A DNA stretch of 56,098 bases, filler included, from Sphacelaria rigidula (lineage: Eukaryota), in NCBI GenBank assembly GCA_964200075.2. It is 6 parts of 6 records of this genome, joined end to end, with 100 filler letters (N's around TTAATTAATTAA, not from the genome) between each part and the next. Parts side by side here need not be neighbours in the genome. Positions count along the whole stretch, not along the records: positions 28,101 to 37,366 come from CAXNAA020008882.1; 5 more parts are not named here. The stretch is one strand, 5' to 3'. Of the stretch, positions 5,201-47,799 are shown in pieces. Position numbers and translations under genes: made by a program. Each line of letters starts with the position of its first letter. Position 1 is the stretch's first letter. The notes under the pieces were generated by a model. It was not told where the DNA came from and did no database searches. It saw nothing but the letters and a program-made list of their open reading frames with translations.

Positions 5201-8200
5201 GCGACGCACGCGTGCATACAAAACATAATCGCCTACTTCGAAACTCGGCAATTCCAGCCCCGACGAAGACCCCTCACGTCTACGCGCACTTTCAGCTGCA
5301 ACACGCTCCTGCACTTGAACGTGGAAACATTCTTGCAAGTCCAAGACTCCTTGCAATGCACTCTTAATTTGAACATCGTCCAGAACATCACACTTCCATT
5401 CCCCCGCCGACGAGGACGCCAGCACCGGGAAAGACGTCCGAGGGGCACGGCCGAACATCACGTGATATGGCGTGCTATCGTGCCGACGGCGATATGCTGT
5501 ATTTAGCACCCCTTGCACAGCGGGCAACACATCCACCCACTCGGTCACCTCTCGACGCTGCTCGAGAAGAATAGAACGAAGAGCACGAACTACTTCCTTT
5601 ACCATGTGTTCGCACGTACCGTTAGCCCACGGAGAATACGCTACCGAAAACCGGTGATCAACGCGCAACGCCTCTCGCAACCGAGCCAAGATCGCTTTCT
5701 TGAGATGCGTGGCGGTATCACTCACCCACACACGCGGCACCCCAAAGGTTTGCACCAATTCAGCGAAGACGCAGCAGTCGATTCAGCAGTACACACTACT
5801 ACTGGTTCCAGAGCAACAAAATTGCTCAAATCATCCATGATTACCAAAATGTATCGGAACCCAGCATCCTCCGACAAACCTTGGGAAGCTAGCGGGCCAC
5901 TCTCGCCCACGTGCAAGAAATCAAAAGGAACGACTTCATTCGGCGTGGTCCCCGGACTGTTTCACCGAGCGGGCGGGGAACAACATCGCCCGCCCTCGAG
6001 TCAGCACAGCGAAAACACTGGCGGACAAATTCGCGCACATTAGCTTCTATCCCCTGCCAGACATAAAGCTCTTGCAAGCGCACGAGCGTCGCAGCCACAC
6101 CATGATGCCCGGCGTCGCGCATGTGCGCGCAAATCATCAGACGTACCTGCAACTGCTTGTCATAACTTGGAATCCACAAAACGTTTCGGCCACGCACATG
6201 CACACGAAACAGATCTTCATTGTCCAAGATAGCAGTACCAGCATCCGTCTCGAAAGATTGCACACCGCATCTTCGGCCCCAAGGTCTTTTCGTTGCGCAT
6301 GGTGGACAACAGATTTGGATGGCATCGAGTCATCAGGTTCGCACGGACCATACACAGCCACGGCGCGCGCAGGCAAAGTGGGAATATTCACCCATCGCGA
6401 CAGCAAGTCACCCCACGCGTTACGTTTACCCGAAATATGACAAATCTTGTACCGATACTGTCCTAATAAACCTTTCCACCCCCCCAATCGCTGTGCCAAC
6501 ACCTTCGACACAGACGTCACGCATGCCTCCGGGTTGGAAATGTACGCTAGTCTTCGGTGATCCGTGAAAATGTGGACGCCATCCCACGATAGATGCTCGA
6601 AACGACGAAAAGTGCTCACGATAGCGAAACCTTCTTTGTCAATCGTTGCCCAACGCATCTGTGAACCATTACCACTCAGAAAAGCCAGCAGTTCATGCGT
6701 CATGTCTTCAACCGGCAACCGTTGTTGCATTTCTGCATCAGGCACCTACGTTACAAAACTACCTCAATGAAAGTCGAATGCATCCGGAAACATCAGTATC
6801 TGGCAACCGGGGCGGGGATGGAACAGTGTCACGGCGTGAGCCACCAGATCCTTCGCTGCCGCCCATGCCCGCAGCCTGTCCTCCATCCACGAGGCGGGTG
6901 GAATAACGCAATTTTCGGCCACCCGCTTCGTGCGCCTTGCAGCCCCCCCCATCAGTTCTTCTAGGAAAACGCACAAGGGCGCCACTACTTCAGCCGTATG
7001 TGGCAACGAGGTACGCAACCAGTTCATTGCGTGCAGGAATTGCATTAGTTCTGCTGCTGTTTCTGGACGCCGCATGTCGGACAAACCTTGCAAGCGGACC
7101 GGGTCATGCGAGACGCGGCCGTGTGAGTGTACTTTCCCACACCACACTAGTTCACCAGCAAAAAAAGGTACACTTGTGGGCAGCTGCAAATAGACCAACA
7201 CTCTCTAAGCGAGCCAAAATTGCATCAAGCGTATGCAACAGTTCGTCTTCCGTATCCGCGAAGAAAAAGACATCATCCACCCAAATCTTGCATTTCAAGC
7301 CATCTAAAAGGTCTACCGTGACACCTTGAAAATATGAAGTAGCATTCAACACGCTTTGCGGTACTCGTTGCGGGGTAAACATGCCAAACAGGAGTCGTGA
7401 TTGTGAATATCTCTTGCGCCTCTTCGGCCAACGGCATCTGCCAGTACCCCTGTAGGAGGTTCAACTCACCGAAACATCGCGCACTCAATAGGTCTATCAT
7501 GTCGGATTCCTGATTGGGCATGACGCCCGGCGACTTGTCCACCTGATCATTGACGGATCCGTAATCGCTGACAAAACGGGAAGAGTGCTTCTTCGGCACC
7601 GTCATCGCTGGACTGGATCACACCGCCTGTAGATTCCTGAACACCAACCCAAACGCCACAAGAGCTCCCATGCAAGAAACTAACCAACTGGACTTTACCG
7701 GATCATACCTCCTCGGTTTTGCCTTCACCGCGGCCGTCCCTGGCTCCAGTGTAACCCTTATGGGTTCCATGCGCGCAGGGGGATCACCCCTCAGCGCACG
7801 ACGAAACGCGTTAACGTGGCGATACAATATGCCACGCAAGCGCTCCACTATTAAGACGGTGAGGCCATTTGCCACACCATCCGTCACGCTTTCCTCCAGC
7901 GCAGCTTTTCGCGCGGACTCTTCTTGCGCCGGCTCCATAAACATATCGGGGCCACGCTCCACCAAGCGTTCCACCGCCTCATCACACTCCTTGGACACCT
8001 GCCCCCCCGGCTGCTGGAGAGCATCGACCGACAAACTCACTCTGCGACTGGCCAAAAAAGCTGGCGTCTCGACACTCGAACCGGGCGACGGCATTTGCGG
8101 TTTTAGGGACTCTAACAGACGATCATACGGATCGACTCCGAGTCCCCGAAGCGTCGGTAAGCCCAACAAAACGACACCATCCGTCCCCGACATGATTGCA

Positions 8201-9267: not shown

Positions 9268-9367
9268 NNNNNNNNNNNNNNNNNNNNNNNNNNNNNNNNN
9301 NNNNNNNNNNNTTAATTAATTAANNNNNNNNNNNNNNNNNNNNNNNNNNNNNNNNNNNNNNNNNNNN
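9268..9367. other. Artificial 100-bp spacer (N44-TTAATTAATTAA-N44), repeated at 18635-18734, 28001-28100, 37367-37466 and 46733-46832
   Basis: All five spacers are identical, contain a six-frame-stop linker, and separate segments of 9266-9267 bp. Confidence 0.97.
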
Positions 9368-18172: not shown

Positions 18173-19149
18173 TGGTACTGTAGATAATGGGGGGGGCGGG
18201 GGCGATAGCTTGTAGCTTGAAAATTGCCGGGCGAGAGGCCGAAGGCTGCAATACCCTGTGTCCAGAGGCTGCAATGACCTACTGCTGCATCATGTATGAT
18301 GAGTGTACGTAGTGTGGACACGTTGTTTCGATAGGTGGTTTGGGGTGCATTCAGACTCAATGATCGAAGAAGAGTTCTATTTTTCAACTCAAACAATTTT
18401 TAAAACCTCGAAGTCCCAAATTGTCGTCTTCTCCTCATGCTAGAAGGCGCGCCTCGTAAGGAAATACTGCCACAACGCCACAACAAGGACGCGAAGGGGG
18501 CGCATATAATACGCATATTTTCGCTGAAAAGGGCTTAAAATGGGGCATAGAACAAGGGGGGAAAGCCTATTGAAAAAGGGGGGGGGGGGGGGGGGGGGGG
18601 GGTACTTTTTTTTTGCCTTCCTTGGCGGTTTGACNNNNNNNNNNNNNNNNNNNNNNNNNNNNNNNNNNNNNNNNNNNNTTAATTAATTAANNNNNNNNNN
18701 NNNNNNNNNNNNNNNNNNNNNNNNNNNNNNNNNNCGCGCCCCCATGTTCTCCAATCACCCCCCGACACACCCACCATCCCCCCCCCCCCCCCCCCCTTAT
18801 CCCCCCTCCCCGATGCAAAAACTTTCAAACAAATCAGGCCGTCTACGGGGGCAAGATCCCATTGTCGGAAGACCTGATCCGAGATCCCCCCTTCAAGGGA
18901 GCCCGGCGCGTGCGGGGTTGCTGTGTACGAGACGACGAAACTCCCAATCCGAATCACATGACACATAGTAGTCGAAACACTTCAGCGGCAGGGGCAGGGG
19001 CAGCAGCGGCGCCTTCACCAGCCGGCAACGGCAGCTGGTAGCTGCTTAGTAGTAGCCCATAGCAAACGATACGCCTCAGAATTGTGGCAATCAATTTTGA
19101 TTCCTAATTTGCTGAGTGCGATGTGAAACTGCAGGCGGTCAGCACCTCC

Positions 19150-28000: not shown

Positions 28001-29829
28001 NNNNNNNNNNNNNNNNNNNNNNNNNNNNNNNNNNNNNNNNNNNNTTAATTAATTAANNNNNNNNNNNNNNNNNNNNNNNNNNNNNNNNNNNNNNNNNNNN
28101 TTTTCTTCTTTTTCTTTTGTAGGGTGGGGGGGTGTGGGGGGTATGTCGGGTTACTCTTGTTCTTGCATGCCATAGTCATAAGACCATTGACCTCGTATCC
28201 CTACAAAGCCGGGACGGAGCACGCCGGGTTTTCGCCGGACAAGGCTCGTACTCAATCACCAAGCGCGTTTTCGGCGAGTCGCATGAAGGGTGAGCTGTAT
28301 CCTGCTAATATTTTGGTCGGCCCGAAGCCTACTGATTATCTTGCATGTGGATGACAGTCTACAATGAGTTGCTTCATTGTCTGGTATCGCCACTTACAGA
28401 GACAACGCGGGCTCATACACTGCCTCATGGGTGCCTCACCATTTACATACTACGTAGTACGATTATCCCCATTGTGCGGACTTGAGTTTCTCCCACGCCG
28501 CACAACATGATCTAGCTCTACTACCATAATGTTTTACAGCGCCGTTGCCACTCTACGCCAACCCAAGAGTCTAGAGGTGAGGGAGGGGAGGGAGGGGGGG
28601 AGAGAGAGAGAGAATATATACACGGTACAGTAGTATTTTGTCGAGGTTCAAACGCTGGTTGTTCCAAAAAAGAACAAGCTAGTATGAGGATGGTAAACGC
28701 TTTATTCTCCACCTTGTAAAAAGAAAAATATATATTCAACGGTAGGGGGTGCAACTTTTAATCCAGTAACTTTCTGACGCTGCACACTAAGGTCCAGATG
28801 TTTGTCATCCAGAGGCTCCTAAAGTGCAGAGCCCCAGAAAAAATTGTGCACCCCTACCGTAGAAGGCCTCAAAGGCGACGTTGCCCCACTCTGTCGTTAA
28901 CCGACTCTCAGGTTTACATCCCCGACATGAGTCGTGTCAAGGAGTGATGCCGCGATAGTCCCCCCTCAGAAAAACAGCCGGTTTTGAGGAGGCATTTCTA
29001 CATGTAAACCAAAATAAAAAAGCCGAGCACACCGAGGAGTTGGGAACTCCCACGCTTGCGACCGTATTCGCCGATGTCGCAATTTACGCCTATATGAGGG
29101 GCTTCGTAAAGTCTGACACAAGTGATCATTCGTTGCATGGCCACTTTCATCGTGATAAATGTGGGGCTGTTTTTTTGGGGGGGGGATGGGGGAGGGGTAT
29201 CGCGCATCACTAAACGGTAGGGGTACCCGAAAAATTCTCAGGGTGGAGTTATTACAATAACAGCCCCCTGTCTCATCCAAAAAACGACTTACTAGATGAA
29301 TAAGAGCGCGCCACTATTAGCATTCCAATGCGCTAGGGATCTCTCGAACGATTTTTAAACGGGTGTCATGACCCATATTCTTATGTAGCTCGTACGTTTA
29401 GGAGCCCCTCAACGAGAAACATGTGGGCCCAAATATGCAATCCCTAACGCGGCAAGATTCATATATTTACCCTCACCGAGAAACGTTAACCCTTTTGGAA
29501 CTCACTGACAAAATTTGTTTTGTGAATCGGAATCATTTTGACTTGAAAATGACTGAAAATGATACCTATTCACAAAAACAGAAATCGTCAACTGGTTCCA
29601 AAAAGATTCATCTGAGAAAAGAAACACGTTTTCCGAAACTTGCATTGTTTTGTTCATCGTCTTTATCGACCTTTCGGCCAGCCCACTACAAAGAGATGTA
29701 TTTTTGTCAGGTTATTCGGGGGTGGTACTTTAGACCCCCTCTCCCCTCTGCTCCGTCTCGAAAGGGATGCGTGGTCAATAGTCAAATGACCAAGGCAAAC
29801 AACAAATGAGTACGCCCCTCCCCCCCCCT

Positions 29830-30182
29830 CCCTCCTCTGAATGAGCTCAGTCTCCGCCCCGGTATTTGCCTCGCGCTTTTCCTACCGTTCCATCATACTT
29901 TTACTCCTTCCGTTCGTCGGGCTAAGTCCGTGCTCGCAGTCCCAAGGGATCAAGTCATCTCTTCCCACCAGGTACATACATACCTGATATTTTGGTATCA
30001 CGGATTAGATCATGACCAGCACATTCCCGCATCGCGTCGACTCTTGTCAAATCCCCTTCGCTACGCACGTGCTCACGTTTCCAACGACGGAACCCAAATT
30101 CCACTGAAGAGAGACATCTGCCGGGATTCGAACCTGGAACCTTCCGCCCTCACTGCTATTAGTCAACCAGTTGGACTCCCCA
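29830..30182 (-). mobile_element. tRNA-derived SINE-like element
   Basis: The minus strand has an A-box-like AGTCCAACTGG and a B-box GGTTCGAATCCC (30123-30134), but no pairing acceptor stem. A non-tRNA body follows, and its 3' limit is approximate. Confidence 0.5.
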
Positions 30183-31640
30183 TCAGAGTACAACAGCTGC
30201 ATCGATCGAGCAATGCACCAGCACTCGCCCGTGCGTCAACACCCATGGAATTATTTCATCATCTCTCGTTCTTGCGTTGTCGGATGACGGAAACCAAAAA
30301 TATAATCTGTCGAAATTCGAAATCATGAAAAAAAATGCCCAGACATCGATGATGTACCATAATACTAGATTGACCACCGTGGCGTGGCGACTGCGCAGTG
30401 GAGCCTTCCATGCATTCATTGCGACATCGGCAGGACAGGTACTATAATAAACGTACACCGTAAAATACCTCACATCTTGTTGAAACGCATGCAACGAAAT
30501 TTGTAAAGTAAAAAGTTCGAAAGCCACGTGAATGGACCAAACGATAACAAAGCCAACGAACCCCATCCCTCAACATGACGGCGTGACATCACCGACCTCC
30601 GCGTCGGACGAGCAGTCCTTCCGTAAACACGCGGGGAAGCTTGCGAAATGGTTCTAGACCGGACGCCTCATTCCACGACTAGTTGATACCCCGCAATGGA
30701 AATACAAATCAACAGCTCTATCTACTGTCGACAGACGCGATCACCGTCGGTCGACCGTAACCGAACGACCCTGTTCACGCAGGGGCACCGACCACATAGT
30801 ACACATACAAACAAGAATTCTGCTGCACTTTCATGTCCATCACTGTCCAGCTGCAGCAGCGGCAAGGTAAACTCCGCCAAGGGTTCCACGTGAAGGCCAC
30901 AAAAGCAATGCGAACCTTAACGGAGATGCTGCAGAGCATACTATTGACTTCATCGCAAAATGAACCATCGCCCGGAAAGCTCGCTAGACGAGAGAACCAC
31001 GAAGCGGGCGAGCTCCTTTCATTGTATATACTGAAAATCCAACACCAAGCCTCACATCCTACGCCATTTCCACTTCGTATAGTGGATCAACACATATTCA
31101 CCTACATTTACATCCACCAACAGAGAGAAAAGGAAAAGGCACCACAGTTTGCTGATTCGTCCAAAGTCTCTGCCCAAGGAGGACATCACCGTCGATCAAG
31201 GAGTTGAGACCAAATCACATACTTTTACTGATAACTTTTTCCACTCAGAAAACTGGGCGCACCTTTTATCTTTGTCTAGCCTCGAAGAAAGGGGTAAATG
31301 AGTCATGCTCTCTGTTGCATTGCTGTTACTTCGTGTACAATCTGTCCCTCCCCCTCCCCTGGCAGCGCGCAACACTAGAAGCAAGCCCATCCTTATCCCG
31401 CACATCACAACCCGCGACATCTTCTGCGTCTCCTCTTTGAAAACATGTCCATCCATATCCCCTATATAACACCCCCTTTTCCCTTCTGTATTACCTCCTT
31501 TGGCGTATCACAATTGCTTGGTGTCACTCGGAGGTACAACACCTTGATCTCTCCCTCGCCACCGGACTCTTACCACGGAGAGTCCTTCAAGGGCATGACA
31601 TTCTAAATAAGCAGTAAGCGACCTCGACAGCATGTTCTTC

Positions 31641-34600
31641 TCACGGCCGGGTGCCTACATCAACGTGCTCCTCGTTCGCTTCCGCATCAGCTTGCTCTTC
31701 CATTGATGCTGGCTCCGTTGCTGGTGTTGCTATTGCTGAACTGCTTTCGTTCGACGTGGTCGTGGGATCCTTGGCAAGCGGCGGCGCAGTGGTAACAGCG
31801 TTCCCCGACATAATCGGGAACGATCCCACAGTGGCGACCGGCGTGGGCCATGCAATGTGCCCCTGCTGTACGGGTTGCGCCGGCACCGGCACGCCGAGAA
31901 AACTCGTTGCCGGGACTATCCTCGGCCCACCCACGCCCGCATTACTAAGGCCAGCAGCTGCGGCCGCGGCTGCGGCTGCGGATCCCTGCGCTGCCAATGC
32001 ATTGTTTGCGCTGGATGCCGCCATGTTGGTGGCGGCGGCAGCGGCGGCAGCGGCAGCAGCGGCGGTGGTGGTCGTGGACAGCAGAGACGGGTGTGCTGTG
32101 GTGGCAGTCGTAGAGTAGGAAGGGACCTGCGAAGACGACGAACCCGGTGCACTCGCGATGCCGACAGCGCCCGCGGCGACGAAGCTCTGCGCGTGCTGAG
32201 GAAGGGAAAGGCTGACACCGGCGGCGCCGTTGCTGCTACTCGAGGCGTGAGATGCGGCGCTGGAGGCGGAGGTGTTGAAAGTACGCCTCTTGATCGGGCC
32301 TTCGTTGATGCCAGTGATACGGTGGCGCCGGAGGAACCGGTGGCACCAGGAGTTGATCTTTCCCTCGTGTTTGCGCATCGCAGCGGGGTCGTCGTGCGGG
32401 ACTATTCCAAACACGCCCGGCGAGAGCTCTTCCGCCTTTTCCTTCAGCAGCCGCGAGGACACGGGGAACTCGCCCTTGGACTTGATTTCCTTTATGTAGG
32501 CGATCAGATCGTCCTCGATACCGATGGTCAACGGCGCTTTCCCCAGAGAAAATGACTTCTTGTTGCTCATGTGGTTTGACCAGCTCGCCCCGCCCAGCTC
32601 CGCCGCCTCAGAGAGAGCATTTTCCATCTCAGGCAGGCGCCGCATCCACTCTCTCACGCTTTGCGCTTCTGGAATGCCCAACTGCAGCGCCGCGTAGCGC
32701 GGGCCTATAGTCCCACCTTTTGCCTGTTCGATTGTTGTACATACGCGCGTGGAGCAGAAGAGAAGACGATGAAATTTTGATTTGAACAAGGGCGGATACG
32801 GCAACAAAAAATGAAATTTTGAACGCAGTGTAGTGGGAAACGGTTCACTCAAAAGCAGCGGAGGTGGAAAATTTACCGTCAGACAGACCCACTGATAAGA
32901 CTTAAGGATAACGTCCAGTAAAATATTTCACAAGGTTTTTAACGGGAAAACGGGATGGGAATATTTCTTGTGGTCCCCGAAAAAGAGAGGACGTGATGAA
33001 TACTCGCTTCGTAAATCTAAAAGAAATGTGATGAGACGGGACGGGGATTTGCATCCCGTCGTGAGATCTCGTCTCGTCGCGGCCGTCCTTGCGGAAGCAT
33101 AGGTGTGAGCATGTGACCCCTCGAGAAAAACGCGCTGAAACCATGATTTTGTGCTGTCGATGCTCTCACGCAGTACGAAGAAAAACTAAGCGATTCTCAC
33201 ATACACAGCGCTTAAATCGAACAATGATCAGAACAACCAGCGAAACAGCCGCGTGGAACAACGTACCAAAGAGGCTAGAGCCCAACACGGCATAAAAAAC
33301 CCGAACACAACCTGGGCAACAAACTAGCACTCGACCACCGGCACGCTGCACCATCCTCTACGGGGAGCGCTAAAACTTCCGTCGATTTGTGTAAGAATAT
33401 GTCTCACATCTGGGAGAGATCCAAGTATACGCGAAGATGTCTTCGATTTTCCATGGGATTGTACAGAATTTTTCGTATCATGAATTATGAGGGGAAGTAG
33501 CCATGGTCGTCCTCGGAGGACGGGACAGCGACGGAAAAAAACGAACGGGAAGGGCTCGGGAAGGGAAATTCCCTCCGAAAGTAACACGGCGTACCTGTCC
33601 CGCTCCACACAAATTGTCACCAGATTTCTTCCACTAGAACTTGGATTCTCCGTCCCAAAAAAATTACGATCAACAGGGCACACAGCACAGGCGACACTCT
33701 ACTCACTTCTGGTACAGCACACAATACTGTCTTGTAAGATCAGCTGCTACGCAAAAAATCGTGGGTTTTTGGATGGGGCAATCAAACATAGCGCAGGAAG
33801 GCGTCCAACTATTATCTAGATTCAGCAAAGAGTGCTCGGAGGCAACAACCTTCAACCTCGTGGCGTCGAATGCAACAGATGATCACACGTGGATCAATTA
33901 GACTGGGAAAAAGTGTGAAAATAATGTTCTGGAGAAACACCCTTCACGAGGTAAGGTGTGAAGACCACGCACGGGACACACAGCGAGTTTACAGTGGGGA
34001 CGGTACTCATGTACAGAGAGGAGCTGCTCACCTATAGCAATATATATATATATATATATAAAGGTCACCCGCAGTGAAGGTCAGTCGTAGATATTGTTCC
34101 GAAATGAGCTATGATGCCAACAGGGTTAGTACGAACGGTATAGGAGTACGGCATCACGGGGCGAAGCATCCCCCTGGGCGATGGGTCTCCGACGTCAGTT
34201 TCTGGGACAGACGCGTGAAACTGATCGTAAATTCAGCAATAATATGATGTATCTAACCAAGCATGAAAAATTCAACAATATAAGTTATGTATTTCCAACA
34301 AGATCACCTCGGCGTAATGTCCGCAACTGTGGCTAGAAACTGAATCAATTTGGGGTTATCCAGGATTTTGTATGATGTTCTACATCATTCACCGCACAGT
34401 GCACTCAGTACAGTATACAGTATACAGTACCGTTCCAGACATTGGAATCTGTCTGGAGATGTCTCGAGATGATGTCTGGAGATGCCGAAAGCAGGAAGGA
34501 GTGCGTGTGCATGTGTATGTGTTTGTTTGTTTCGTCTGGTCATTTACTCCCGGCCCTCACTAGATTAACATAGTTCTAGGGATGCAGCAGGGTACGGAGA

Positions 34601-35563
34601 AGACGGCACCTACTGTACCTTGTCCCCAACAACAGTAGTAGGAATAACAGGAGTGTACCGAACTATACTACATCACGAGTATACATTCTGTACAACACGT
34701 ACATACTACAAGTATCACACCTGGCCGTTCGGGTCCTTAGACAGAGCGTACTTCGCCACCTTGATCTTGAAGTCGAGCGAGTATCTCTTCCGGATACCGC
34801 CACCCCCGGGTTGCTCCGCCTCAAAATTCGGTGGCCTCAGGTTAAGCCTCCGACGTTTCGGCTGCGGCGACTGTTTACCCTTACCCTTGGCACCTCGGCC
34901 ACCGCGCCTTGATGACCCACCAGACTGCTTGCGCTTACCAGCGCCACCGTGTCCCTTTGCCCCCGTCCCAGATCCAGACGACGAGGATGGCTTCGAATCC
35001 GAGCCACCTCCCCCGCCGGTAGTACCATCTCCGCCACCTAAACCGAGCGCCATTGCTTCATCATCTCCAAGGTCTGCTGCACTCTGCACCTTGGAGGTCG
35101 GTTTGCGATGCCTCGTGCTGCTCCTCCTAGGCGTGGCACCATCTCCTCCTCCTCCTCCTCCTTCCCCGGCAGGCGGATCGCGCAGGCTGGCCAAAGTGGC
35201 CGATTCGACCGCTTGCCCCAGGACCTGGAGCCCGCCATAGACCCGGGCATTGGTTCCATCAGTACCAGCACCGTCCCCACTTGCGGTATCACCGGACGTA
35301 TCAGCGGCGGCGGCGGCGGCTGCAGCGGCGGCGGCGTCCTTACTCTTGCTCTCGGCGGCGGCGCGGGCCGTCTCGGTTTCGATGGCGCTGTCAAGTTGTT
35401 TTTCGAGACTGCTCGGTTCACCACGCTCTTTGGTTTCGGAAGAGGCAGAATGTTCGGGGGAAGTCTCAGTTTTTTCTTCTTTTGGCGCTTGCTTTTCAGA
35501 CGAAGGGGTAACAGAAGTAGGAGGAGCGGGAGTAGAACCAGGACTAGCGCATTTTGAATCCAT
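31641..35563 (-). CDS. CENP-B/pogo-type tandem HTH DNA-binding protein without a DDE domain (641 aa, two exons)
   Basis: Exon 1 is 35563-34721 (MDSKCASP...IRKRYSLDFKIKVAKYALSKDPNGQ, CAG|GTGTGA). Exon 2 is 32723-31641 (AG|AKGGTIGPRYAALQLGIPEAQSVREWMRR...LTIGIEDDLIAYIKEIKSKGEFPVSSRLLKEKAEEL...SWCHRFLRRHRI...stop). The junction is phase 0 and there are no disablements. First HTH is Brinker/psq-like, second is HTH_Tnp_Tc5-like. Confidence 0.85.
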
Positions 35564-36521
35564 CCTCGCGCGTCGCGGCTGTTTATTATCAGGGGGGTGA
35601 TAACCTGCTGGTATGAGTGCGTCGTGTATCAGGGGGGTGTTATGCCTACACGTGGCCACTGCCTTTGTAGAGAATGGCAAAAGAAAATTACACATTTCGG
35701 GAAATGACATCATATCAAGTTGTGATTATTGAGATGTTATCTCGAAAATCTGCTGTTTTTGCCTCTGTAGATGCACTGAAGAGGGTGTCATGTGGCGCTT
35801 CACCCTAGCTACTGTTGCTATCGCTGCTTCTACTACTGCGTTCCGGGTGGCCTCGACCTCTGCTTTTATTTCATCTCAGCCATGGAGTAGAACTACTACA
35901 ACAGGTGATACAACGCCAGAGGCTGATTTCGTACCGTACTCACAATACTCGTAGTCTTGTTGTATAGAGGACACTGAACGTCAGACGAGCGACATGTACC
36001 GTACTGCACTGCACTGAGGCGCTGCGCCAAGTCAGACACGACAAGGTTGCACTTATATATCCCGCTTCTCTACAACAGTACAGCACGAGCATTTCACTGC
36101 AGTATCATAAACTGTAGTACAGCCCAGCACAGTAAAGCAACGGTGCTGTGATCAGTTGAACGCCAAGGACATCGAAAACCCATTTCAAACGGGGGTCAAG
36201 GATATTCGGATACTGTACTCTTCAAACTAGCTCCAGCAAGCGCGCGTAATCTTGAACGGAGCTTTGTTCTCATCCTGATGAATGCCACGTATCTATCCGC
36301 CATTTGCTACGCTAAAACCGCGCGCGAGCAGACGCTCGTGACAGATGTACTGGTCGAGATAAACAAAAAATGGGTACCCGGGATCAAGTGCTGAAATGTT
36401 GGAACTGACAGATGCAAGTTGAAGTAGTGACCCCAGCCACACGCCCTTGGACCGTGCAGCATGGCACCGCATATTGGCCGGTCCCACTATTTGACAAGGT
36501 TATGTTTTTGAGAACACAACC

Positions 36522-36681
36522 AGCATGGCTCGTGTGCTCGAGTCATCACTTTTTACAACAAGCAATGACTCGTGTGCTCGAGTCATCACTTGATTTTACA
36601 ACGAGCAATGACTCGTGTGCTCGAGTCACTACTTTTTTTTTTTTACAACGAAAGTTTCAACGAGCAATGACTCGAGTGCTC
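36522..36681. repeat. Short tandem repeat (four units of about 40-55 bp) with a palindromic core
   Basis: GCAATGACTCGTGTGCTCGAGTCATCACT-type unit repeated with T-rich/ACAAC linkers. The core TGACTCG...CGAGTCA is an inverted repeat. Confidence 0.75.
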
Positions 36682-37140
36682 GCCGTATTATCCCTTTCGG
36701 GACCGACCCCCTACTAACACGGGGTTGACAACGTGTTGGTGAAATGATTAAAAATAAGTCCGGGAGCGACCTGATCAATCACGACGAGGCAAAATTTTTC
36801 GACCAGGCCCGAACGACCAGCGCGGGGACTGTTGCCGAGGGTGATGTCACTGCAAAGATTGTGTGGGCGCCCTATCCCTGGCCCAGATAAGCCTTCCCAG
36901 GTTTCCAAAGCCAGGATGCTCGGAGCATGGCTTATCGTATTACTTGCATTCAGTATGTCGTTCCCGGGATTTCCCGGGAGTTTTTCGGGTCGCCATCCTA
37001 TACTAAAACGTAGTAATTACACTAACAGAGAGTGGAGTGGGGAAAACCGGGGAGGAGTGTACATGCCACAAAGTGGTGACTTTCACGAGGCACTAAACCC
37101 AGGTGGGCCGCGGAAAGACAAGGAACTACCGTCATGAATT

Positions 37141-37366
37141 CCAGGGAGGGATACGTGACACACGTGACACATTTGAAAAAAAACGGGGAAAAAACGAAAC
37201 TTTGGGCCATTTAACGCTACGTAAGGTTTGATGTTTTGGACGGGACAAAAGCAACGTAATGTGATGTCACATGTGGACCTTGAAGCAGTGTCTCTTGGTG
37301 TTTTCCAGATGTAAAAAAATGCTGTTTTTGTGAATTTTAAACGTGACACGTGACAAGTTACATATT
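37141..37366. repeat. End of a hAT-like MITE (CAGGGAGGGATACGTGACAC terminus, GTGACAC sub-repeats); an opposite end of the same family lies at 37467-37529
   Basis: CCAGGGAGGGATACGTGACAC is the reverse complement of GTGTCACGTATCCCTCCCTGG (37509-37529). Confidence 0.6.
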
Positions 37367-38450
37367 NNNNNNNNNNNNNNNNNNNNNNNNNNNNNNNNNN
37401 NNNNNNNNNNTTAATTAATTAANNNNNNNNNNNNNNNNNNNNNNNNNNNNNNNNNNNNNNNNNNNNGCCCAAAACGTCACGTTCACGTCACGTGTCACGC
37501 TGTGTCACGTGTCACGTATCCCTCCCTGGAAAAAATAGACTTATCTCACCCACCGCTGTCGCGACTTGCTGGCAGTGTTGCACCCCTATTTATTTTCAAC
37601 GGGAAGGATAGAGGGGTTCATCCTTGCAATACCAACAGTAGAAGAGAAAATGAAGGACAGAAAAGAGAGCCTGGGTACGGAACGACTTGCATTCCAAGCA
37701 CCGTGGAGAAGGTGAGCCCAGACGTTTACGGATCTTCTTCTTACTGTGGTAGTGACGAGAATGTTTTTGCCCGAAATATGTACCTACATATATATATATA
37801 TAATGCTATGGAGGGTTCCGAATCATTGCACTAACAGAGAGTAATACGCTGTGCTTACGGGCTATGCAAGGAGCACAACGGAACATGACGTATGGGGGCA
37901 AAGTTTATCGGCTGTTGGAAGACATCAGACGCGGGGTACTAAACACAAGATGACATCATATGCAACGGGGTAATAACAGACATCAGACACTGGATAGAAT
38001 ATAGGATACGGGATACATCAGGCATTCAAGACAATCCCGCTTTACTCGTCTTTGAGCGATATGTTGAACAGGGTAATACGCGTATGTTCCGCTGAAGAAC
38101 GAGGATGGCTTATGCAACAGCTTGAGATTTAACAGTAAACGGCTAAATGAGCTCAACACGCTGGAAACACGATAATTTCGTTACAAGCACATAGTTTTGT
38201 GGTGATTTGATATTAAACGTAGGACGCACGAGACATGATTGAAGACAGGCTACGACGACGACGACGACGACGACACTAAGCACACCGCATACTGCGCGAG
38301 AAATTTCAATATGCACGACATAGAACGCACACACAAAATCCGTAACAAACGCAAAGACACAAAATAGAGAATAAAACATGACAACGCTATAGCAATGACA
38401 ATCAAACGACGACAGATGAAAGAACCCAAACACTGCACGGCATACTGCAG

Positions 38451-41831: not shown

Positions 41832-42227
41832 CGCCCCCCCCCCTCCCCCCCTCTCCTCCCTCTNNNNNNNNNNAAAAATAAGACACCCCCCCCCACCCCG
41901 GCGCCCCCTGTCATACCCCCTCCGGCTCCAAGAACCCCGTTCCCCCCCCCCCCCCCCCCCACTCGCCCCTTCCCGCTTGTTACCATGGCGGCTTCTGTCC
42001 ATTACTCTCTGTATCCCAGTTGAAGACGTCTTTGAATCCAGAGCATAACCTGAAAGCGGTCATGCTATATGGACCAGGGGGCGCCGGCAAGACTATGCTG
42101 GTCGAGATTATCGCCTCAGAGGTACGTGTGTATGTAGTATGAATGAAACATGGTATGAAACACAAACGGGCTTGTACGGGTGTTGTATCCAAACAAAACT
42201 CTTTGTCTGCCTGTCTGTCTGTCTGCC

Positions 42228-46732: not shown

Positions 46733-47799
46733 NNNNNNNNNNNNNNNNNNNNNNNNNNNNNNNNNNNNNNNNNNNNTTAATTAATTAANNNNNNNNNNNN
46801 NNNNNNNNNNNNNNNNNNNNNNNNNNNNNNNNCATTTCCCCCTCTAGCACATTCCATTCCTCCTTGTATAGCTCACATTCTGCCACTATATGGGGGGTGG
46901 GGGGGTGGGGCTGGTTAGTGAACCTTCGTACACTTGAGAGAATGGATGGTATGCAGTAGCGGCCCGCTCATAAGAACATGAAAATCAGCCTCCACCCGAG
47001 TTTCATGCCTGATACAACGGCCTAATGTACTGGACTGAGTGTAGCGGTCGTCGCTGAAGCTCGACTTTCCCTCTCATGTTTGTAAAAATGTTGATGTTGG
47101 CCTGATTTTCTTACAACCTCGTTCCTTACGAGCCGGCCTGTATGCATGCGAGCATACATATTCCCCTTCACGCGCTGTTTTTTGCCTCTCCCTGTCTGTA
47201 GGGGCGCCGACAGACCCGGGATCCAAACCGATCAGTGAGGCATGGCATCCCAGGACACGCCCTCCTTCATTAGTGCCCGCATCGACTACTTGTTCACTAG
47301 TGTCAAATACATCGGGAGCTGGCGACACGAAGTCGTGTGTGTATCAGTGAAATGACGGCCACCACCATTTCCTCATGCCGTTTGTTGATTAGATGACTTG
47401 ATACTACGGTGGAGTAGCTATCTTGTTTCTTGATCTTTGCAGGTGTACGTATTTGACCCCCTTTTCAATGTACATGATATGTGATAAACTAATTTATATT
47501 TGCGATAAAGTGTGCCTTCCTTGTTGTAGGAGTGCAGACAACAAAAAGTGAACGGCACACGGTGTTGCACTGTACTGTACTAATTGCTGTAACGCCGCAG
47601 TGAGACACTGCCGATGGGTACTGTAACGATTATGATAGACTTGTACTCTTCTTGAAACGGTTTCTCCAAAACGAAAACAACCACAGAAGTGAGGGAAAAA
47701 AAACGTCCTGCAGTACGGTACGGGTACCATCGTCACCACGGTGCAGACAGGGCATAGAGGAAACCGAGCATTGCATTATAGTACCAAGTACACAGATAC

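Follow-up and report, generated by a model that had tools for sequence, protein, structure and literature searches.

Can a transposase lose its catalytic domain and live on as a gene of its host? A locus in the brown alga Sphacelaria rigidula raises this question. In a 56,098-base stretch of DNA from assembly GCA_964200075.2 (hereafter the window), the minus strand between positions 31641 and 35563 encodes a protein with a head like that of pogo-type transposases, which bind DNA through two helix-turn-helix (HTH) domains, and with a long low-complexity tail. An earlier interpretation made without database searches (hereafter the sequence-only reading) proposed that it is a candidate domesticated transposase. 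Single-copy read depth, splicing, expression, the lack of a DDE catalytic domain, homology to a DDE-bearing protein (P0014) and the existence of DDE-less relatives all support this proposal. We conclude that the gene is probably a domesticated, DNA-binding-only derivative of a pogo-type transposase (BrkDBD plus HTH_Tnp_Tc5, Passer-like) that would serve as a nuclear, sequence-specific DNA-binding factor.

Two sets of observations separate this gene from a mobile element. First, the hallmarks of an active transposase are missing: there is no DDE/DDD domain, and the 9.3-kb contig shows no multi-copy element with terminal inverted repeats (TIRs) and a TA duplication. Second, the hallmarks of a host gene are present, namely an intact, transcribed and spliced open reading frame (ORF) that is single-copy in one DNA run. 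The gene's own contig (CAXNAA020008882.1) is the fourth piece of the window, 28101-37366, and is 9266 nt long.

The gene comprises two coding exons. Stop-to-stop ORFs on the minus strand span 34715..35725 and 31641..32927, and joining the exons computationally gives 1926 nt, or 641 codons and a single terminal stop. The ORFs, junctions and length are all as the sequence-only reading had claimed for an ORF without disablements, and every peptide string that it quoted occurs in the translated protein. Exon 1 (34721..35563, 281 codons) opens at 35563 with an ATG whose context has A at -3 and G at +4, and encodes a Gly/Ala/Ser-rich N-terminal tail, a basic cluster and the first half of the first HTH (HTH1). 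GTGTGA follows its last base at 34721, and GAACAG stands just before the first base of exon 2 at 32723. The 1997-nt spliceosomal intron between them (32724..34720, GT..AG, phase 0) lies within HTH1. Exon 2 (31641..32723, 360 codons plus a TGA at 31643-31641) encodes the rest of the DNA-binding part and then an Ala/Ser/Thr/Pro-rich tail.

Is the gene expressed? Four of twelve public sequencing runs were compared with the whole contig; none of the twelve is on record as RNA, and the RNA label of runs X6-X9 is an index guess ("RNA?"). Run X1 behaves as DNA, because one of its contigs, 4518 nt long, spans the intron without a break (32081-35294) and none of the 30 bins lacks coverage. In run X5 (study P1) and runs X6 and X7 (study P3), by comparison, one contig each of 3638-3667 nt covers 29993-32722, skips 1997 nt and goes on to 35627, 35628 or 35656. 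The skipped segment is bounded in all three by CT..AC on the given strand, that is, by GT..AG on the minus strand. A 69-nt stretch at 35295-35363 was masked as repeat in the run mapping; record coordinates are colinear there. The splice joint has depth 0 in X1, and X5-X7 lack coverage of most intron bins and of the upstream bin 36135-36443, a pattern that we use as evidence only together with the joint. From the joint in X5-X7, its zero depth in X1 and the empty intron and upstream bins, it follows that spliced mRNA is present in three RNA-like runs from two studies. Splicing occurs exactly at the 34721/32723 junction that the sequence-only reading had put forward, which confirms its roughly 2-kb spliceosomal intron splitting the first HTH; absence of expression, which it had listed as an unfavorable outcome, did not occur.

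The same contigs bear on whether the catalytic domain merely escaped the gene model. A DDE exon could lie beyond the 9.3-kb contig or in another isoform, making the product a full transposase, and indeed the contig is short and contigs built from short-read runs lose rare isoforms. Against this, all three RNA-like contigs pass the stop codon and stay colinear with the genome for 1648 nt, to 29993, with no joint, so the transcript has no downstream coding exon. This segment is the minimum 3' untranslated region (UTR; 29993..31640), and it has no further splice and no Pfam domain. Neither tblastn nor Pfam found a DDE domain on the contig, and two relatives described below, P0003 and P0004, also end without one. 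The downstream spliced DDE exon named earlier as a counter-scenario thus did not appear, and we consider an incomplete model highly improbable.

Read depth indicates that the gene is present once. In DNA run X1, contigs over the gene have depths of 62.4-62.5, compared with 57.7-65.9 for neighboring unique pieces, and no second copy at least 90% alike was found. At the same 90% likeness threshold, summed depth in X1 is 56-155 over the gene bins versus 1e5-1e7 over the flanking repeats. These high-copy repeats occupy 28101-28700, 29646-29954 and 36444-37366 and show many joints and loose ends in X1. Within the 9.3-kb contig, the gene is not bracketed by any convincing TIR pair; the strongest inverted candidates measure 18-20 nt at 80-83%. 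The many near-identical, TIR-bounded dispersed copies that would mark a mobile family were therefore not seen, given single-copy depth and no bracketing TIRs.

These data also speak to a rival in which the locus is an internally deleted, non-autonomous pogo-like copy, still part of a mobile family, whose product would be at most a repressor of the truncated-transposase type. Internal deletions that remove DDE are described as common in pogo elements (PMC4231638), and highly repeated DNA does flank the gene. However, a deleted copy sits poorly with the single-copy depth, the lack of further contigs at least 90% alike over the gene and the lack of bracketing TIRs. It fits no better with a 2-kb spliceosomal intron within the HTH whose position is common to the relative P0030, or with DDE-less relatives, down to 53% identity, that keep motifs outside the DNA-binding domain (DBD). 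We judge this rival improbable. A viral (phaeovirus) origin was set aside given the spliceosomal intron and the host-like depth.

What kind of protein does the gene encode? Its DNA-binding part covers residues about 240-420 and is flanked by low-complexity tails: Gly (18%), Ala (15%) and Ser (14%) are prominent in the first 235 residues, and Ala (25%) and Ser (14%) in the last 221. Ahead of the first HTH lies the nuclear localization signal (NLS)-like basic cluster reported before, KRRR at 34847..34858, then LNLRPPNFE (34820-34846). HTH1 is of Brinker/psq-like kind; its first half (34721..34798) ends exon 1 and its second half (32616..32723) begins exon 2 and holds an invariant Trp, W137 of P0001, the NCBI model of this protein. 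HTH2 (32310..32519, P0001 residues 180-249) corresponds to Pfam HTH_Tnp_Tc5 (PF03221), whose cutoff of 22.2 bits the protein exceeds with scores of 28.2 and 28.0 (E about 2e-6; positions 4-64 of the 66-position profile are covered). Of the bipartite pogo/Tigger DNA-binding module in the sequence-only reading, this half stands above its Pfam cutoff, and the BrkDBD half falls below by sequence.

Nothing resembling a catalytic domain accompanies this head. The protein has no match to DDE_1 (PF03184), and besides HTH_Tnp_Tc5 and the weak BrkDBD match no Pfam family was found in it at E up to 5. Likewise, the 32 other ORFs of at least 70 amino acids (aa) on the contig match no Pfam family, bar one sub-threshold chance match, and none matches DDE_1. 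When DDE-bearing P0014 was compared with the window by tblastn, only its residues 56-79 and 82-217 matched, on the two exons, with nothing beyond 217. The lack of a DDE domain stated in the sequence-only reading thus holds for the protein, with its Ala/Ser/Thr/Pro-rich tail, and extends to the 3' UTR and the other ORFs of the contig.

Structure prediction yields a head with two HTH units. The AlphaFold2 model, built on a 27-row alignment, has a predicted local distance difference test score (pLDDT) above 90 for the greater part of P0001 residues 70-250, with 91-96 in the majority of 10-residue blocks, and is disordered elsewhere. Predicted helices at 93-104, 119-126 and 131-139, a long one at 141-165, and those at 178-194, 201-211 and 224-244 make up two three-helix units and a joining helix. 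A Foldseek search of the PDB placed 1hlv_A, CENP-B(1-129) on DNA, at the top (E 0.028, probability 0.99, template-modeling score 0.53 by target), with no match at E of 0.001 or below. A second, Foldseek-independent structure search also ranked 1hlv_A first (Z 6.5, root-mean-square deviation 4.9, 126 of 131 residues, model range 84-247), and its third match, the Brinker DBD 2glo, covers HTH1 (Z 5.5, 58 of 59 residues, model range 86-151). The three-helix unit at HTH1 aligns with domain 1 of CENP-B as well. Look-alikes in the ESM Atlas, useful as leads only, all belong to the HTH_Tnp_Tc5, BrkDBD or CENP-B_N families (scores 0.85-0.90). The structural match is consistent with a pogo-type head and falls short of proof, because such Z values are frequent in helical models.

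To collect relatives, 1.84 billion representatives were searched exhaustively with HMMER, the first 150 residues of exon 2 serving as query. Only 27 proteins were returned at E of 0.001 or below. Word-based homologue searches with alignments, capped at 8000 candidates among which low-complexity words were probably overrepresented, added just P0029 and P0030, and of 595 pattern matches to a tighter family alignment among metagenome contigs, tblastn confirmed 0. One protein, P0025 (274 aa, E 2.1e-4, 3 stretches), was set aside as an unrelated repeat protein and is in no alignment.

The relatives fall into two kinds. Those without DDE comprise P0002 (98% identity), P0003 (80-82%) and P0004 (53-54%), which have Ala/Ser/Thr/Gly-rich tails and have in common with the gene a C-terminal motif, GGPR.V.ATS.LG...GH..W. 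In the gene this motif reads GGPR..ATSFLG..GHIAWP (31839..31931, residues 546-576), and it is recognizable in all three relatives. Short exon-sized fragments at 59-68% identity (P0005-P0012, P0015, P0016 and P0022) group with this kind. The second kind is transposase-like. P0014 (580 aa; library E 1.2e-12, pairwise E 1e-26, 33% identity over 163 aa with 3 gap positions) has the same head followed by DDE_1 at E 6.5e-18, the sole DDE_1 match among the 24 proteins scanned. The spacing of its last two candidate catalytic Asp, 34 or 35 residues, is compatible with DD35D. Five more (P0013, P0017, P0018, P0023 and P0027) break off just past an N[MA]D[EQ][TS] motif, at the point where a DDE domain begins. 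The basic cluster and an L.L.PPDF motif upstream of the HTH are common to these transposase-type relatives and the gene. Because P0014 has the same head plus DDE_1, a pogo-like transposase is supported as the gene's source.

This ancestry could also be read the other way, or in no direction at all. An old host HTH family might share the module with transposases by descent or by host capture, in which case the gene was never a transposase. The phylogeny leaves this opening: in a maximum-likelihood tree of 18 of the 27 rows (the other nine were excluded for having fewer than 100 residues in the DBD slice), one branch separates the four DDE-less rows (P0001-P0004) from the five DDE-type rows, with support of 79/71 in an unrooted tree. 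Further, P0020, whose position is uncertain, also lacks DDE. On the other side, the whole layout of basic cluster, L.L.PPDF, HTH1, linker helix and HTH2 is common to relatives that continue into DDE. Moreover, established knowledge and PMC7386202 treat the bipartite module, which forms the head of pogo transposases, as ancestral to them throughout eukaryotes. A gene that was never a transposase is, in our estimate, very unlikely.

P0020 itself (428 aa) has Gln/Ala-rich tails and an HTH1 nearer that of transposase P0014. It could be either another DDE-less derivative, distinct from this one, or a distant orthologue.

Across aligned positions, the DBD differs at 2/113 in P0002, 21/117 in P0003 and 72/167 in P0004, versus 19/218, 135/221 and 167/237 in the rest of the protein (Fisher p of 0.016, 1e-14 and 4e-8, respectively). 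In P0003, the DBD changes 3.4-fold less than the tails. Alignment implies 2, 11 and 15 insertion or deletion events in P0002, P0003 and P0004, and the frame is kept in all. The head is thus under stronger constraint than the tails, as a contrast at the protein level that is distinct from a ratio of nonsynonymous to synonymous rates (dN/dS).

This constraint is hard to reconcile with an expressed but functionless relic, that is, a recently immobilized fragment drifting neutrally with its frame open by chance. Such a relic is conceivable here in that low-complexity sequence makes up roughly two thirds of the protein and the DNA is GC-rich, a setting in which long ORFs form readily; other frames or the other strand also give ORFs of 166-271 aa at this locus. 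Nevertheless, the frame has survived the 11 and 15 indel events at 80% and 53% identity, and besides the slower change of the DBD in P0003, both tails contain conserved blocks. We therefore attach very little probability to a relic.

Relatives also inform the position of the intron and the start of the protein. P0030, an exon-1 relative, reads DPNGQ and then V, running into GT at the same codon as the gene, so it shares the intron position. Eight exon fragments (P0005-P0009, P0011, P0012 and P0016) instead begin about 11 codons before the gene's intron site, read across it and end after SRGRV, ORF borders that suggest different intron positions in more distant relatives.

At its N-terminus, the gene appears longer than its current annotation. 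The NCBI protein P0001 (471 aa) bears no annotation beyond "unnamed protein product"; it corresponds exactly to the C-terminal end of the 641-aa protein (100% identity) and uses the same junction. Its start Met lies 170 codons after the first ATG of the RNA-like contigs, skipping 35053-35563. P0030 begins MDS like the 641-aa protein and shares its conserved N-terminal block (35171..35242, residues 108-131), identical at 22/23 aligned positions from Y on (Y-GGLQVLGQAVESATLASLRDPP), and RRSS.R.R.PTSKVQS is common to both as well. The two shared blocks lie upstream of the NCBI start Met. The minimum 5' UTR (35564..35656), delimited by RNA-like contigs that end at 35627, 35628 and 35656, contributes 93 nt without an ATG. 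Because the P0030-conserved blocks precede the NCBI Met and this 5' stretch lacks an ATG, the 641-aa reading is better supported, and the 471-aa model is probably truncated, with a start about 170 codons late.

Several points weigh against domestication, and our confidence in it is tempered by them. The RNA nature of the runs rests on the spliced contig together with the lack of coverage in bin 36135-36443 and most intron bins. The contig is only 9.3 kb long and ends in repeats, so distant TIRs may lie outside it. The BrkDBD match of HTH1 is sub-cutoff (12.1 bits, E 0.19, cutoff 23.4, P0001 86-147), and the structural scores are modest, since a Z of 6.5 is commonplace for helical models and the Foldseek E is 0.028. 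P0002, at 98% identity, may come from the same or a sister species. Finally, the branch that parts DDE-less from DDE-type rows has the modest support given above, in a tree without a root. Even so, we hold domestication to be the likely history of the gene.

How might such a protein work? In the mechanism that we propose, the gene would have retained the N-terminal part of a transposase, including the basic nuclear-import-like cluster and the bipartite HTH module, and would have lost the DDE catalytic domain; because of that loss, the product should be unable to cut and paste DNA. KRRR would bring the protein into the nucleus. CENP-B(1-129) binds a 17-bp box (1HLV). Because of this knowledge and the fold match, we propose that the two HTH domains would bind a specific site of about 15-20 bp, as CENP-B(1-129) does on the CENP-B box. 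Short conserved motifs in the disordered N- and C-terminal tails may recruit partner proteins, and the resulting role would be that of a transcription or chromatin factor. As for a centromere role, this analysis produced no evidence.

A bolder version is that the gene belongs to a brown-alga factor family, built from a Passer-like pogo head, that still recognizes the terminal repeats of its source transposon and of the derived miniature inverted-repeat transposable elements (MITEs), whose ends the sequence-only reading had named as possible targets, so that these ends would form a network of binding sites. We regard this as a long shot worth stating, and in the window tblastn found no P0014-like element or TIRs of one. 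If it were true, the elements would be silenced or nearby genes wired into a regulon, independently of CENP-B, JRK, POGZ and Abp1.

Vertebrates, insects and fission yeast all have documented cases in which a pogo transposase became a DNA-binding protein of the host (PMC7386202 and PMC4231638 among the sources). A close parallel in form is Drosophila CAG, which Mateo & Gonzalez 2014 (PMC4231638) present as a pogo-derived, CENP-B-related protein without DDE. Like our gene, CAG is a host protein that kept the pogo-type DNA-binding head and has no DDE. The two differ in lineage, insect versus brown alga, and the tails of our gene are Ala/Ser/Gly-rich with conserved motifs of their own.

The pogo-derived centromere-binding proteins of mammals (CENP-B) and fission yeast (Abp1/Cbh) also have a bipartite HTH head, and CENP-B supplies the best structural match of the model, 1hlv_A; Abp1 (1iuf) ranks only 38th in Foldseek, at E 3.4. 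In CENP-B, a DDE-derived central domain and a C-terminal dimerization domain are retained; by Pfam at E up to 5, our gene product has neither. Searched against PDB sequences, the family profile returned only 2elh_A (a psq-type domain, E 0.57), and it found no CENP-B or Abp1 chain at E up to 10. Because this profile misses those chains and the nearest DDE-bearing relative is P0014-like, the case appears independent of the mammalian and yeast ones, which supports the independent stramenopile domestication suggested by the sequence-only reading. The animal proteins Brinker (2glo) and CG11849/dan (2elh), which like our gene are DNA-binding-only, are built on an HTH of the kind found in the pogo head. 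Unlike our gene with its two HTHs, however, Brinker/pipsqueak-type proteins have a single one, and the sequence similarity is not significant, as the 2elh_A score indicates.

Which pogo lineage did the head come from? Gao et al. 2020 (PMC7386202) describe the Passer family as having BrkDBD plus HTH_Tnp_Tc5 with DD35D and record it in stramenopiles. The gene resembles Passer in its domains, with HTH_Tnp_Tc5 above and BrkDBD below the Pfam cutoff, and the Asp spacing of P0014 fits DD35D. Unlike Passer, the gene has no DDE, TIR or target-site duplication, and P0014 is likened to Passer by layout and spacing, as distinct from phylogeny. The two stramenopile rows shown in the Passer sheet of PMC7386202 are oomycetes, and Ectocarpus, Phaeophyceae and Saccharina have 0 occurrences in its 8 supplement files. 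Because the rows shown are oomycetes and brown-alga names are absent from the supplement, we infer a Passer-like source from sequence features and claim nothing firmer.

The gene supports adding a further case to the known recurrence of pogo domestication, here in a DNA-binding-only form. Full-text literature searches yielded no report of pogo domestication in brown algae among the matches listed. The terms "pogo", "transposase" and "domesticat" have 0 occurrences in the main text of two brown-alga preprints, 10.1101/2024.02.19.579948 (Phaeoexplorer) and 10.64898/2026.04.27.720984 (a 2026 transcriptome), whose supplements may bear on the point. If confirmed, the gene would be an independent case of domestication in a lineage whose complex multicellularity arose separately, and it would offer brown-alga biology a candidate lineage-restricted DNA-binding regulator.

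The setting of the gene calls for some care. The window is made of six pieces of about 9.27 kb joined at five places by N44-TTAATTAATTAA-N44 spacers (9268-9367, 18635-18734, 28001-28100, 37367-37466 and 46733-46832), and features on different pieces are not genome neighbors. An extra 10-N gap lies at 41864-41873. Because the pieces are unrelated contigs, one argument of the sequence-only reading, that every recognizable transposon ORF in the window is broken and this one is not, carries no weight.

Several repeats on the gene's contig merit mention. Upstream of the gene, inside the high-copy region, 36511-36695 holds a tandem array in which a unit of about 43 nt, palindromic at its core (..GACTCGTGTGCTCGAGTC..), occurs four times. 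Just past the mapped 3' end of the transcript, adjoining a high-copy stretch, nested short inverted repeats at 29488-29608 (34 nt at 71%, 22 nt at 91%) are hairpin-like. Finally, the end of the gene's contig (37139-37161) and the start of the next (37509-37531) show an inverted match of 23 nt without mismatches. It spans a spacer and is not a genomic structure; because of this match, the two contigs probably share a repeat family.

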